Positions 43,782 to 52,922 of a stretch of DNA of 64,000 bases are shown here, piece by piece. Origin of the DNA: Escherichia coli (GTDB lineage Bacteria > Pseudomonadota > Gammaproteobacteria > Enterobacterales > Enterobacteriaceae); NCBI RefSeq assembly GCF_003790525.1, contig NZ_CP033635.1, one strand, 5' to 3'. The notes under the pieces were generated by a model. The model did not search any database. It was not told where the DNA came from and saw only the letters and a list, made by a program, of their open reading frames with translations. The first letter of the stretch is position 1, and every line of letters begins with the position of its first letter. A program made the translations under genes and the position numbers.

Positions 43782-44269
43782 TCTGGACGGGTAAGCGCTG
43801 GGCGTACCTCGCCGTTGTTCTCGACCTGTTCGCAAGAAAACCAGTGGGCTGGGCCATGTCGTTCTCGCCGGACAGCAGGCTTACCATGAAAGCACTGGAA
43901 ATGGCATGGGAAACCCGTGGTAAGCCCGTCGGGGTGATGTTCCACAGCGATCAAGGCAGTCATTATACGAGCAGGCAGTTCCGGCAGTTACTGTGGAGAT
44001 ACCGGATCAGGCAGAGTATGAGTCGGCGTGGAAACTGCTGGGATAACAGCCCAATGGAGCGCTTCTTCAGGAGTCTGAAGAACGAATGGGTGCCGGCGAC
44101 GGGCTATGTAAGCTTCAGCGATGCAGCTCACGCAATAACGGACTATATCGTTGGATATTACAGCGCACTAAGACCGCACGAATATAATGGTGGGTTACCA
44201 CCAAACGAATCGGAAAATCGATACTGGAAAAAACTCTAACTCGGTGGCCAGTTTTTGTTGACCACTTCA
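43782..44269 (+). mobile_element. IS911-type 3' part: transposase OrfB C-terminal section and right inverted repeat
   Basis: Frame continues ...[29 protein letters not shown]... to stop at 44239; terminal 30 bp (44240-44269) are the inverted counterpart of the IS911 left IR seen at 52589 (tgaagtggtcaacaaaaactggccacc vs tgaagtggcacactgaatttggccacc). Confidence 0.6.
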
Positions 44270-44497
44270 TCTTAAATGACTCTGAGGTGTCTGTTAAACC
44301 TGTGGCGATTCAGTCTATTAAACCTGTGGCGATTCACTTTATGGTGTCATAAACTTAAATCTAGCGCCGGGTAGAACAAGTTAATCGAACGATGTAGCGG
44401 CCATTTAGGCGTTACAGAAAGAACAGAATTTTAAATTTATAGTGAAGCCGTTGCAGCAACTTTGTGGGGTGCAACCAACACTGAACAGGAAAAGAAA

Positions 44498-46921
44498 ATG
44501 GATCATAGTGTACATAACAAGCTCATCTCATTTATTTGGAACATTGCCGACGACTGTTTACGTGATGTGTACGTTCGCGGTAAGTACCGCGATGTGATTT
44601 TACCTATGGTGGTATTACGACGTTTAGATACGTTACTTGAACCCACCAAAGAAGCCGTGCTTGAAGAGGTCAAGTTCCAAAAAGAAGAGATGCAAGCCAC
44701 GGAGCTTGATGATGAACCATTGAAGGCGGCTAGTGGTTATGTTTTTTACAATACATCTAAATGGACCCTGAAATCCCTGTTCAACACCGCAACGAATAAC
44801 CAACAGATATTACTCGCCAACTTTGAAGAGTACCTGCTTGGCTTTAGCGATAATGTTAAAGAAATCATTGAATGCTTTAACCTCAAGTCGCAAATTCGTC
44901 ACATGGCCTCAAAGCAAGTCCTTCTTGATGTCGTCGAAAAGTTTGTTTCCCCTTACATCAACTTAACTCATGAAACGATCGAAGACCCAGATGGCAACAA
45001 GATGCCAGCCCTTACTAACCTGGGTATGGGGTACGTGTTCGAAGAGTTGATCCGTAAGTTCAACGAGGAGAATAACGAAGAAGCCGGTGAGCACTTTACA
45101 CCTAGGGAAGTGATTGAGCTGATGACACACTTGGTTTTTGACCCAGTGAAAGAGCAGCTACCATTGACCATGACCGTTTACGACCCTGCGTGTGGTAGCG
45201 GTGGTATGCTCACTGAATCTCAAAACTTCATTGAAGAGAAATACCCGAACGACAGCCGAGATATTTACCTTTACGGCAAAGAGATCAATGACGAGACCTA
45301 CGCGATTTGTAAATCGGACATGATGATCAAAGGTAACAACCCTGAGAACATCAAGGTAGGCTCAACCTTGTCTACCGACGAGTTTGCGGCTTCTCGCTTT
45401 GACTTTATGTTGTCTAACCCGCCATACGGTAAGAGTTGGGCGTCTGAACAGAAGCATATTAAAGACGGTAGTGACGTGATTGACCCACGTTTTAAGGTTA
45501 GCCTGAAAGACTATTGGGGAAATCTCGAAGTGGTGGATGCCACGCCACGTTCAAGTGATGGCCAGCTGCTCTTTTTAATGGAAATGGTCAACAAGATGAA
45601 AGATCCGAGCGTAAGCCCATTAGGCAGCCGGATTGCTTCTGTTCATAACGGCTCATCGCTCTTTACCGGTGATGCGGGCGGTGGCGAAAGTAACATTCGT
45701 CGCTTCATCATTGAAAACGACATGCTAGATGCCATCGTTCAGTTACCAAATAACCTGTTCTACAACACCGGCATTACCACTTACATTTGGGTGTTGAACA
45801 ACAATAAACCTGAGGCACGTAAAGGTAAGGTGCAACTGATTGATGCCAGCTTGCTATACCGTAAGTTGCGTAAGAACTTAGGTAACAAAAACTGCGAATT
45901 TGCGCCTGAGCACATCACGGAAATCACCGATACTTACCTCGCGTGTGTGGACGTTGAAAGAGCACTTGATGCAAACAATGATCCTATCGGTATCGCCAGT
46001 AAGGTCTTTAGTAATGACGACTTTGGCTACTACAAAGTCACTATCGAGCGCCCAGATCGCCGCAAAGCCAAGTTTACTCAAGATGCCATAGCCCCACTGC
46101 GTTTTGATAAGCAACTTAGTGAAGTGATGGAGTACGTGTACGCAGAGCACGGCGAACGTGTTTACGAAAAAACTGGCTACGGGTCAGATCAGAAAAAGAG
46201 CTTCTTAAAATCCATCGAGAAAGACATTCTTTCTTGGTGTGAAGATAACGACATCAGTCTCAATGCTAAGGCTAAGGCCAAACTGCTTGATGTGAAACAC
46301 TGGCTGGCGCTAAAAGCATTGCTTGAAACTGCACAAACGCTGATGGCTGACATCGGTAGCATTGAATTTGATGACTTCAATAGCTTTAAAACCCAAGTTG
46401 ATAAATCGCTAAAAGCCCATGCTATTAAGCTTTCAGCACCTGAGAAAAATGCCATTCTTCACGCGGTGAGCTGGTATGACGAAACCGCCAAGAAAGTGGT
46501 TAAAAAGGTAGTTAAATTAACGGGTGATAAATTAAACGACCTGCTGGAGCGCTATGAGTGTGAAGTCGCTGACTTGCCAGATTTTGGTTATTACCCCGTT
46601 CCTTCAGCAGAAGGCGGTAAAAAAGGCGAGTATATCACTTACGAGACCAATTCAGACCTGCGAGATACAGAATCTGTTCCATTAAAGCAAAGCATTTACC
46701 AGTACTTCCTAGATGAAGTGAAGCCTCATGTCGATGAAGCATGGATAAACCTAGATACGGTAAAAATTGGCTATGAAATCAGCTTCAATAAGTATTTCTA
46801 CCGTCATAAACCGCTGCGTAGTTTAGAAGAGGTCGCAACCGACATCATCAACCTAGAACAAAAAGCCGAAGGTTTGATTGCGCAGATTCTTGGTGCGGAA
46901 GTAAAAAAGGTTCAGGGGTAA
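44498..46921 (+). CDS. hsdM: Type I restriction-modification system methyltransferase subunit HsdM (long form, ~807 aa)
   Basis: Track ORF from 44462 (TTG); ATG at 44498 with AGGAAAAG RBS; N6-adenine MTase motifs DPACGSGGML and NPPYG; ~300-aa C-terminal extension. Confidence 0.85.
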   Translation: MDHSVHNKLISFIWNIADDCLRDVYVRGKYRDVILPMVVLRRLDTLLEPTKEAVLEEVKFQKEEMQATELDDEPLKAASGYVFYNTSKWTLKSLFNTATNNQQILLANFEEYLLGFSDNVKEIIECFNLKSQIRHMASKQVLLDVVEKFVSPYINLTHETIEDPDGNKMPALTNLGMGYVFEELIRKFNEENNEEAGEHFTPREVIELMTHLVFDPVKEQLPLTMTVYDPACGSGGMLTESQNFIEEKYPNDSRDIYLYGKEINDETYAICKSDMMIKGNNPENIKVGSTLSTDEFAASRFDFMLSNPPYGKSWASEQKHIKDGSDVIDPRFKVSLKDYWGNLEVVDATPRSSDGQLLFLMEMVNKMKDPSVSPLGSRIASVHNGSSLFTGDAGGGESNIRRFIIENDMLDAIVQLPNNLFYNTGITTYIWVLNNNKPEARKGKVQLIDASLLYRKLRKNLGNKNCEFAPEHITEITDTYLACVDVERALDANNDPIGIASKVFSNDDFGYYKVTIERPDRRKAKFTQDAIAPLRFDKQLSEVMEYVYAEHGERVYEKTGYGSDQKKSFLKSIEKDILSWCEDNDISLNAKAKAKLLDVKHWLALKALLETAQTLMADIGSIEFDDFNSFKTQVDKSLKAHAIKLSAPEKNAILHAVSWYDETAKKVVKKVVKLTGDKLNDLLERYECEVADLPDFGYYPVPSAEGGKKGEYITYETNSDLRDTESVPLKQSIYQYFLDEVKPHVDEAWINLDTVKIGYEISFNKYFYRHKPLRSLEEVATDIINLEQKAEGLIAQILGAEVKKVQG

Positions 46922-46927
46922 GTCGTT

Positions 46928-52400: not shown

Positions 52401-52443
52401 AGCCTCGTGGACGCAAAGTATGCAACGAATGGTAGGTAGGTAG
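49426..52443 (+). CDS. hsdR: Type I restriction enzyme endonuclease/helicase subunit HsdR
   Basis: 1005-aa ORF; SF2 helicase motifs (HSAGSGKS Walker A, IIDEAHSS DEAH box) downstream of an N-terminal nuclease region. Confidence 0.85.
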   Translation: MVSQTNEQALESAIEKCLAGISTEELKEGLSQQSLGAGYFIGAASDFNMQYAIDERFFWQFLQKTQEVELAKLQKNNPSDWQRKLLERFDRLIKKHGILHLLKKGLSVDDAHFNLLYPAPLASSSEKVKQNFADNVFSCTRQVRYSMVNPLQEIDMVLFINGIPLITLELKNAWTGQTARYHGQKQYRDDRDATQPLLTFGRCLVHMAVDTDEVYMTTKLSGSSTFFLPFNKGHNLGQGNPPNPSGHKTAYLWQEVFTKDSLANIIQHFVRLDGSSKDPLPKRTLFFPRYHQLDVVRKLVDHAAQHGVGQTYLIQHSAGSGKSNSITWAAYQLIETYPASSDVAGGKSLEQPLFDSVIVVTDRRLLDKQLRDNIKEFSEVKNIIAPANKSSELKQALENGKKIIITTIQKFPFIIDGIADLSDKRFAVIIDEAHSSQSGSAHDNMNRAMGKSEVEEAEDAQDKILQAMRSRKMRGNASYLAFTATPKNSTLEKFGQRQEDGSYKPFHLYSMKQAIEEGFILDVLANYTTYKSYYEIEKSIADNPEFDTKKAQKKLRAYVERSQQTIDIKAEIMLEHFVPHVVNTKKLKGKGKGMVVTQNIEAAIRYYKAIRRILEEQGNPFKVAIAFSGTKEVDGIEYTEADINGFAESDTKDMFDTDEYRLLVVANKYLTGFDQPKLCAMYVDKKLASVLCVQALSRLNRSAPKLGKKTEDLFILDFFNSVEDIQSAFDPFYTATSLSQATDINVLHELKDEMDDVGVYEWYEVEDFVTRYFKNEDAQTLSPIIDIAAARFDHELDLEAEAKVDFKIKAKQFVKIYGQMASIMPYEMVSWEKLFWFLKFLIPKLKVEDPDADAIDELLDSVDLSSYGLQRVKLNHSIKLSDQEAELDPQNPNPRGVHGGEKETDPLDEIIRTFNERWFQGWSATPEEQKVKFVNIAESIRNHPDFESKYKNNPDPHNRDLAFEKMLKEIMLQRRKDELELYKLFAGDSAFKASWTQSMQRMVGR

Positions 52444-52468
52444 GTAGAAAGGAGTGATGGTTTGCTGA

Positions 52469-52591
52469 AGGCAGTCTCAGAGTTATTAGGTGGGTCACCA
52501 GGCCTGAAAGGACGTCAAATTGCCAAGGAGCTGGGGCTGGATAAGTCACAAGTGAACTCGTTTCTTCACAAACACCAGGATACGTTTTGAA
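52469..52591 (+). pseudogene. 5' fragment of a small HTH gene truncated by the IS911 left end
   Basis: TTG-initiated frame LLKAVSELLGGSPGLKGRQIAKELGLDKSQVNSFLHKHQDTF ends in a TGA supplied by the first bases of the IS911 IR. Confidence 0.3.
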
Positions 52592-52922
52592 GTGGCACAC
52601 TGAATTTGGCCACCTGAACAGAGGTGATATGCTCACCTCAGAACAACACAGGTGCTCCAATGAAAAAAAGAAATTTCAGCGCAGAGTTTAAACGCGAATC
52701 CGCTCAACTGGTTGTTGACCAGAACTACACGGTGGCAGATGTCGCCAAAGCTATGGATGTTGGCCTTTCCACAATGACAAGATGGGTCAAACAACTGCGT
52801 GATGAGCGTCAGGGCAAAACACCAAAAGCCTCTCCGATAACACCAGAACAAATCGAAATACGTGAGCTGAGGAAAAAGCTACAACGCATTGAAATGGAGA
52901 ATGAAATATTAAAAAAGGCTAC
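52589..52922 (+). mobile_element. IS911 5' part: left IR and truncated orfA, interrupted by IS30
   Basis: tgaagtggcacactgaatttggccacc terminal repeat; orf[36 protein letters not shown]... ends abruptly after ...ILKKAT where IS30 terminal sequence begins. Confidence 0.7.

Follow-up and report, generated by a model that had tools for sequence, protein, structure and literature searches.

The 64,000-nucleotide stretch of Escherichia coli DNA analysed here ('the window'; contig NZ_CP033635.1 of RefSeq assembly GCF_003790525.1) carries a Type I restriction-modification (R-M) cassette at positions 44335-52587, over which the GC content is 43.8% as against 54-56% in the flanks. Between the flanks lie four unbroken open reading frames (ORFs), hsdM, hsdS, a DUF4268 gene and hsdR, all co-directional on the + strand. 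The DNA of the whole interval is 97-99% identical to islands of Proteus mirabilis, the target-recognition domains (TRDs) of hsdS excepted, and the native order of the cassette, common to Proteus and Vibrio cholerae, is brxR-hsdM-hsdS-DUF4268-hsdR-wHTH, where wHTH denotes a winged-helix gene; in Proteus, hsdM has 807 aa, hsdR 1005 aa and the winged-helix ORF 65 aa. Orthologues of HsdM with 94-98% identity are found in Vibrio, Shewanella, Proteus, Providencia, Morganella, Enterobacter, Actinobacillus and Plesiomonas, and identity at this level over so many genera indicates recent horizontal spread. The cassette is already annotated and widespread, its genes being named Type I M, S and R by PGAP. 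With a probability of roughly 0.8, we read the locus as a horizontally acquired, apparently intact Type I R-M defence cassette that sits in an E. coli genomic island amid the debris of different insertion sequences (ISs), and that was not captured by an IS911 transposon, as an earlier note on this DNA had proposed.

The first gene, hsdM (44498-46921, + strand; 807 aa), encodes HsdM_N (residues 10-149) and N6_Mtase (177-486) domains in Pfam, followed by a C-terminal module of ~300 aa; motif I (DPACGSG, residue 229) and NPPY (307) are both present, and the PADLOC MTase_I model PDLC03029 covers residues 2-798 (E 3e-268). It is followed by hsdS (46928-48238, +; 436 aa, two TRDs), which matches PADLOC Specificity_I over residues 7-430 (E 2e-118) and whose TRD regions, at 46988-48141, are the sole part divergent from the Proteus and plasmid copies. 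At the far end, hsdR (49426-52443, +; 1005 aa) is recognised by TIGR00348 hsdR (E 2e-62) and PADLOC REase_I (E 2e-41), with HSDR_N/ResIII/SWI2_SNF2/T1R_D3-like domains assigned by Pfam to an orthologue; its PD-(D/E)xK nuclease motif (D-x13-ELK, residue 155) and its helicase motifs (Walker A GSGKS, 319; DEAH, 431) are intact. A short (GGTA)n run over the hsdR stop (52432-52448) shows a one-unit difference from Proteus and a substitution relative to the plasmid copy, leaving the HsdR C-terminus unaltered. Separate genes for HsdM, HsdS and HsdR in one operon, recognised as such by PADLOC, NCBIfam and Pfam, place the system in Type I. By analogy with characterised enzymes of that type, an M2S1 complex would be expected to methylate a bipartite target set by HsdS, and the joining of HsdR to M2S1 would lead to translocation and to cutting of unmodified incoming DNA. 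No match to hsdM was found among 50,697 phage genomes.

Embedded between hsdS and hsdR is a gene of 387 aa (48248-49411, +) that matches PDC-S11, listed by PADLOC as a candidate for phage defence (E 4.5e-182). Pfam places DUF4268 at residues 238-372 of its product, with weak PDDEXK_4 and NucS_C matches at 29-97, and NCBIfam NucS is hit with E 2e-5; the N-terminal part holds a PD-(D/E)xK/NucS-like nuclease motif, D...ENK, at residues 56-79. DUF4268 is known otherwise from GmrSD Type IV enzymes, in which it is accessory (PMC4619093), and our literature searches on DUF4268 in Type I loci and on PDC-S11 found no functional study. Homology to PrrC or RloC (ABC ATPase plus anticodon nuclease) was looked for in the embedded protein and none was found, the matches being limited to DUF4268, the weak PDDEXK/NucS_C hits and PDC-S11. 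Judged by analogy, the gene would most likely provide a separate or back-up nuclease defence.

At the left edge of the cassette, the native first gene has been reduced to a remnant. The last 16 codons and stop of brxR (44335-44384, +) are recognised by alignment to P. mirabilis brxR, and tblastn recovers just residues 292-307 of BrxR from the window; exact search, blastn and tblastn found the rest of brxR, like the rest of the wHTH gene, nowhere else in it. An intact BrxR orthologue has the WHD_BrxR/WYL/BrxR_CTD domains (Pfam) of a WYL-domain defence regulator. The 113-bp intergenic region between brxR and hsdM (44385-44497, +), presumably the location of the hsdM promoter, is identical to Proteus throughout. 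We also considered a hybrid outward promoter running from the right terminal inverted repeat (IRR) of the flanking IS into hsdM, and rejected it, a simple sigma-70 scan having given no consensus site on the + strand in 44100-44600.

Abutting the brxR remnant is a left-end relic of a third, unnamed IS3-family element (44270-44336, - strand), made up of 43 nt, TGAATCGCCACAGGTTTAACAGACACCTCAGAGTCATTTAAGA, and a 24-nt tandem partial copy; its reverse complement matches the left terminal inverted repeat (IRL) and 5' leader of an IS that adjoins yagB in K-12 and is also present in HKUOPY1. The 24-bp repeat of the relic tip (44313-44336) carries one substitution (TTTAAT vs TTTAAC) and adjoins the brxR remnant; plasmid copies of the cassette are without it, and have a 60-nt single-copy relic at the identical brxR breakpoint. 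The third IS is thus the element that truncated brxR, its relic filling the 67 bp between the tip of ISEc52 and the brxR remnant, and ISEc52 sits 43 bp inside that relic.

The ISEc52 3' part (43782-44269, +) contains the 3' end of orfB, which stops at 44239, and the IRR at 44234-44269. It is identical at 488 of 488 positions to ISEc52 (copy in ATCC 25922), 95.3% identical (E=0) to positions 762-1248 of a PGAP-annotated complete IS911, and 94.7% identical to the IS911 segment on plasmid pM160133_p3. Its first base directly adjoins the last base of a group II intron (41515-43781, +; first letters GTGTG), the end of which is fixed at 43781 by the Rfam Intron_gpII domain V/VI match (43695-43781; 64.9 bits); the intron carries ltrA (reverse transcriptase/maturase, 42183-43691), which is annotated in identical loci and in translation breaks off at a nonsense codon (codon 29). 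As its 5' exon the intron has the 5' part of an IS629/IS1203-like IS3-family element (40717-41514, +), comprising IRL, orfA, an ALIL frameshift pseudoknot (41052-41168, Rfam) and the 5' part of orfB; it is 94.5-95.5% identical to copies labelled IS629/IS1203 by PGAP. Between this exon and IS911, blastn finds no similarity, nor is any DNA similarity to IS629 detectable in the 3' exon. The exons at 40717-44269 are thus chimeric, IS629/IS1203-like on the 5' side and ISEc52 on the 3' side, both being cut at the homologous D-x-T-Y codon site of orfB; this suggests recombination between intron copies residing in different IS elements, which would best explain such an arrangement.

On the right, a remnant of the wHTH gene (52462-52590, +) retains 42 native codons, is cut after codon 43 and takes its TGA stop from the IS911 tip; it aligns to the 65-aa ORF of Proteus and to a 222-aa ORF of V. 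cholerae, and the wHTH 3' part that it lacks reads GTCAAAAACTCAAATCATG.... The gene that follows hsdR has 222 aa in one V. cholerae contig (9455-10123 of locus L015; a winged-helix N-terminus with an uncharacterised C-terminal part) and 109 aa in others. Taking these with the 65 aa of Proteus and the 43 codons of the window, this sixth gene of the cassette appears to be decaying in several lineages.

The IS911 5' part that cuts the gene (52588-52922, +) has its IRL at 52588-52623 (first letters TGAAGTGGCACACTG...) and the ATG of orfA at 52660, and is 98.5% identical to IS911 positions 1-334 as against 90.7% to ISEc52; over their full lengths ISEc52 and IS911 are 94.2% identical and their IRRs are nearly so. 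It is truncated at position ~335 by the end of an IS30 fragment (52923-53682, - strand; terminal repeat TGTAGATTCAATC...), the transposase ORF of which (52930-53847, minus strand) is without its N-terminus; the fragment is 99.9% identical to a complete IS30 in BEN5202, is annotated in identical loci and is followed by IS66-family debris. The IS30/IS911 junction (52915-52935) falls just past the ...ILKKA codons of orfA. IS30 occupies the homologous site in the orfA of another IS3-family element beside yagB, in K-12 (2230-2250 of locus L008) and in HKUOPY1 (2235-2250 of locus L009), and in HKUOPY1 its two sides come from different IS elements, the 5' part of an unnamed IS and IS911 333-1248. Insertion of IS30 at a matching orfA site, with differing ISs on either side, makes this site an IS30 hot spot that produces chimeras.

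Much of the earlier note's description of these flanks holds. Both partial elements lie on the + strand in direct orientation with their terminal repeats facing inward, the 'inside-out' arrangement that it had described around an operon at 44498-52443, where the four unbroken ORFs were indeed found, and the GC comparison that it called for sets the cassette apart. The orfB 3' end at 43782-44239 with the terminal repeat after it, the orfA 5' end running to 52922 and the truncation of a small HTH gene were likewise correctly placed, and the distal parts have been destroyed as supposed, the left being cut at the group II intron and the right by IS30. The terminal repeats, taken there as inverted partners, do match at 24 of 36 positions, starting TGAAGTGG; the right-hand one begins at 52588, and not at 52589. 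The attribution of both flanks to IS911 is sound for the right and fails for the left, which is ISEc52. Nor does the operon lie exactly between the two ends: the relic, the brxR codons and the 113-bp intergenic region all intervene on the left. As for capture between two IS911 copies, the note had itself named, as an outcome that would refute it, termini that belong to different IS3-family members on alignment, and taken strictly this is what the alignments gave, though the two are close relatives. Its check for target-site duplication gave differing inner flanks (TCT vs TTT), the outer ends having been replaced by the intron and IS629 on the left and by IS30 on the right.

The cassette was sought in other E. 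coli genomes with a query spanning brxR and the 5' end of hsdM, which matched 77 of them (42 chromosomal and 36 plasmid places); in none of the 77 does brxR lie beside the cassette. Most listed copies lose homology to Proteus at one common base, on chromosomes and plasmids alike, a few being cut nearer to hsdM by other insertions, and the R-M ORFs are intact in the inspected loci, bar one frameshifted hsdM. On SSU5-like plasmids the layout is SPFH' / 60-nt relic / brxR remnant / R-M / wHTH cut at 52540 / IS911 617-1248 / DUF7238', without the left ISEc52. The cassette plasmids (pM160133_p3, pSTEC388_1) are ~106-160 kb in size and carry dnaE, cobT, recA and RepB, a gene set of the SSU5-like phage-plasmid kind. 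Their hosts are E. coli and E. fergusonii; plasmids of Enterobacter, Salmonella and Shigella also gave matches, and 39 records of PLSDB match. BEN5202 resembles the window on its left side and the plasmids at its right junction, beyond which come IS911 617-761 and 156 nt of intron. In ETEC4068, Zorya and a complete IS3 stand to the left, 22 bp away from the start of hsdM, and the right junction is of the window type; in this genome (1664-9528 of locus L012) a Type I Zorya lies directly upstream of the cassette with just the complete IS3 between them, and it is here that hsdM is frameshifted. The ISEc52/relic junction was found in 35 genomes, every listed one a chromosome, and the junction of wHTH with the IS911 IRL in 34. 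Every E. coli context that we examined has, downstream of hsdR, an IS911 belonging to one allele class, 98.5-98.6% identical to the reference. A single 664-bp deletion would turn the window-type right junction (52587/position 1) into the plasmid type (52540/IS911 617), and the change cannot run the other way, which implies that in an ancestor the wHTH gene held a complete IS911.

Taken together, these findings show that insertions of IS3-family elements clipped the cassette at both edges in the E. coli lineage. The unnamed third IS removed all but 16 codons of brxR, and at the other edge the wHTH gene was interrupted at codon 43 by a genuine IS911. Later, in an order that we infer, ISEc52 (and not IS911) would have entered the relic of that third IS at a point 43 bp in; ISEc52 would itself have been split by a group II intron, with recombination of intron copies swapping its 5' half for one that is IS629-like; and IS30 would have truncated the right-hand IS911. 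The inside-out flanks are the immobile debris of different elements, left by serial IS traffic through a variable region of the island, and not a composite transposon. No complete IS3-family element is present on either side, just positions 762-1250 of one remaining on the left and 1-335 of another on the right.

A composite transposon would require that two IS911, or two interchangeable IS911-like copies, carried the R-M operon into the island, their outer halves decaying later. The direct orientation of the fragments, with terminal repeats toward the cargo, is in keeping with this, as are the 94.2% identity of ISEc52 and IS911 and their near-identical IRRs; the cassette, moreover, is opposite to the island backbone when compared with Proteus, and its truncated form is found on two kinds of replicon and hence did move. 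Yet the two ends are different named elements, and the relic of the third IS, which made the common brxR breakpoint, parts the left element from the cargo. Plasmid copies show that breakpoint without the left ISEc52, ETEC4068 has IS3 there instead, and the ISEc52/relic junction, listed from chromosomes alone, was always in this island context in the loci inspected; nor is there a target duplication. The same IS-cargo-IS unit was not seen at independent sites, the plasmid and ETEC4068 copies being flanked differently. We consider a composite transposon very unlikely. A mobile unit consisting of the truncated cassette and a complete right-hand IS911 is a better candidate, which we would entertain tentatively and at distinctly less than even odds: it would have moved between the chromosomal island and SSU5-like plasmids either through one-ended or adjacent rearrangements or through homologous recombination between its IS911 and copies elsewhere, and the left flank would play no part in its mobility. 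The shared IS911 allele class downstream of hsdR points this way, as does the complete ancestral IS911 implied by the 664-bp deletion that yields the plasmid and BEN5202 junction. No locus examined, however, has a complete IS911 at that site, and the left junction on the plasmids (SPFH gene / relic IS position 60) is not a transposition junction.

Several points nonetheless weigh against our own reading, of an acquired and apparently intact cassette clipped by serial insertions. We arrived at the order of IS events by parsimony, from five sequenced contexts, and our reading does not account for the movement of an already-truncated cassette between chromosome and plasmid. With near-identical terminal repeats and 94% identity, one transposase may cross-mobilise ISEc52 and IS911, and the two fragments in the window do not overlap and hence permit no direct mutual comparison. 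With regard to the R-M genes, the scores miss the curated equivalog/subfamily cut-offs of NCBIfam (106.8 vs 242.75 bits for hsdM with TIGR00497; 211.6 vs 284.55 for hsdR with TIGR00348), which marks the lineage as divergent from the classical families, and the roles in restriction and methylation, together with that of the DUF4268 protein, are presumed from homology alone.

The HsdM of 807 aa had also been singled out by the earlier note, and its extension of ~300 aa is real: it reaches ~280-300 aa beyond solved HsdMs, which have 499-544 aa (one shorter and one longer outlier aside), with 529 aa for the EcoKI type. To call it unusually long was an overstatement, as the long HsdM is the normal form of a very large, catalogued R-M lineage with its own PADLOC model. 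The Pfam domains stop at residue 486. Residues 477-807 (45926-46921, +), the C-terminal domain that the note had suggested modelling, gave a confident AlphaFold2 (AF2) model (pLDDT 93.1) comprising a helical bundle, a small alpha/beta domain and a long terminal helix. That the length might be an annotation artefact, two genes fused through a sequencing error or read-through, draws on nothing but its oddity beside EcoKI-type HsdM, and we put the chance of it close to nil: hsdM is one unbroken ORF, the PADLOC profile spans it almost from end to end, at least 120 listed orthologues from many genera (90-100% identity) are nearly all of 802-831 aa, and the module, besides modelling well, stands at the C-terminus of full-length HsdM-like proteins over several phyla. 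A search with the C-terminal 321 aa found 2,410 clusters at 50% identity, in which full-length matches are of HsdM size or bigger, and 340 relatives of the module over several phyla were found in AFDB50, the 50 shown being nearly all annotated as DNA methyltransferases. Among solved structures the module has no relative, solved HsdMs aligning just to its start; it is without a Pfam family, and literature searches found no published study of it.

In distant operons an HsdM of 725-799 aa is accompanied by HsdS; two of their contigs extend as far as the HsdR, which has ~1005-1019 aa. The slot that holds the DUF4268 gene in the window is occupied in these by a SLFN/AlbA_2-HATPase gene, by a YhcG nuclease gene or by nothing, and we rejected the notion that the long HsdM is tied to the DUF4268 gene; slots so varied, or empty, make the C-terminal module a lineage trait that is not bound to DUF4268. 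A 1021-aa protein (P0151; 8001-11066 of locus L025) unites HsdM, the C-terminal module and a Methylase_S (HsdS) domain in one polypeptide. It is plausible that the module contacts HsdS. More speculatively, it may be a new-fold docking or regulatory platform that keeps the products of embedded genes inactive until the R-M complex is inhibited, in a generalised PrrC-like 'guardian' architecture; we think this unlikely, the embedded genes in 3 of 5 informative long-HsdM operons being compatible with it, while the 2 of 5 without one, plus the fusion to HsdS, do not favour it.

As to the wider setting, an ORF at 20449-21765 is a probable island integrase, and the segment in which it lies (20206-24141) shares 85% DNA identity with a part of LR-72 where a tyrosine recombinase is annotated. 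Over its leftmost 28 kb the window is not collinear with LR-72, whose annotation was left aside there. The window contains no tRNA gene. To the right of the IS debris (54959-64000) stands a YeeP-GTPase/Ag43/DUF932/antirestriction/RadC/CbtA-type module. The cassette of Proteus is surrounded by this backbone gene set too, with the relative orientation of the two reversed, and in V. cholerae the cassette adjoins a VspR-family gene. An origin in an SXT/R391 integrative and conjugative element (ICE), suspected from the host range of HsdM, was discarded: the contexts examined are a CP4-like integrative island in Proteus and the VspR-adjacent region in V. cholerae, and no ICE genes were seen in them.

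With respect to the claim that drew attention to this locus, the outcome is negative, in that we find neither an IS911 composite transposon nor an aberrant HsdM. The group II intron and IS30, each residing at homologous hot spots of related ISs, in effect provide portable homology, and the chimeric ISs that result can mislead arguments from matching ends, such as that of the earlier note. What remains of interest is the C-terminal module of HsdM, very common and yet lacking a Pfam family, a solved structure or a published study that we could find, along with the embedded PDC-S11 gene. The locus also amounts to a 'natural experiment' on BrxR: with brxR cut down to 16 codons or gone, any control by BrxR has been lost, and all 77 E. 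coli genomes in which the cassette was detected are without the regulator, the R-M system evidently being maintained without it.

Finally, each part of the locus can be set beside a known system. In Tn10/Tn5-type composite transposons the cargo likewise lies between two related IS fragments; in the window, by contrast, the flanks differ from each other, neither the outer ends nor the transposase genes survive, it is the inner ends that face the cargo, there is no target duplication, and plasmid copies are without the left flank. The E.c.I4 group II intron homes into IS3-like transposase genes, IS629 and IS911 being among its published hosts, and does so in the same D-x-T-Y codon region of orfB as the window intron (PMC3522654); the latter, likened to it by insertion site, differs in having exons from two different IS elements and an ltrA with a nonsense codon. 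BrxR has been reported to be widely linked to mobile defence clusters (PMC12707154), and in the manner of BrxR-regulated defence islands (Acinetobacter and E. fergusonii BREX), the Proteus/Vibrio cassette has at its start a WHD_BrxR/WYL/BrxR_CTD gene that the first defence gene follows immediately, whereas brxR in the window and in every detected E. coli copy is down to 16 codons or gone.

The closest comparisons concern the R-M system itself. With solved Type I enzymes (EcoR124I, 7BST; EcoKI, 2Y7C; 7VRU) the window system has in common motifs I and IV, the three-subunit architecture and an HsdM_N + N6_Mtase core that aligns with E 1e-9 to 1e-26 (profile E to 1e-43); the solved HsdMs end soon after the core, whereas positions 400-705 of the long-lineage profile match nothing solved. 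Genes embedded in Type I loci have been described, with PrrC as the paradigm, and EcoprrI, a Type IC system with prrC, likewise shows the order hsdM-hsdS-X-hsdR with a defence-type gene between hsdS and hsdR (PMC12707154; bioRxiv 10.1101/2024.01.29.577857). The embedded gene of the window is of the PD-(D/E)xK/NucS-like + DUF4268 kind (PDC-S11) and not an ABC-ATPase/anticodon nuclease, and a 'guardian' role is putative here; the HsdM of the window is ~280 aa longer than that of EcoprrI, and the native module adds brxR at one end and the wHTH gene at the other.

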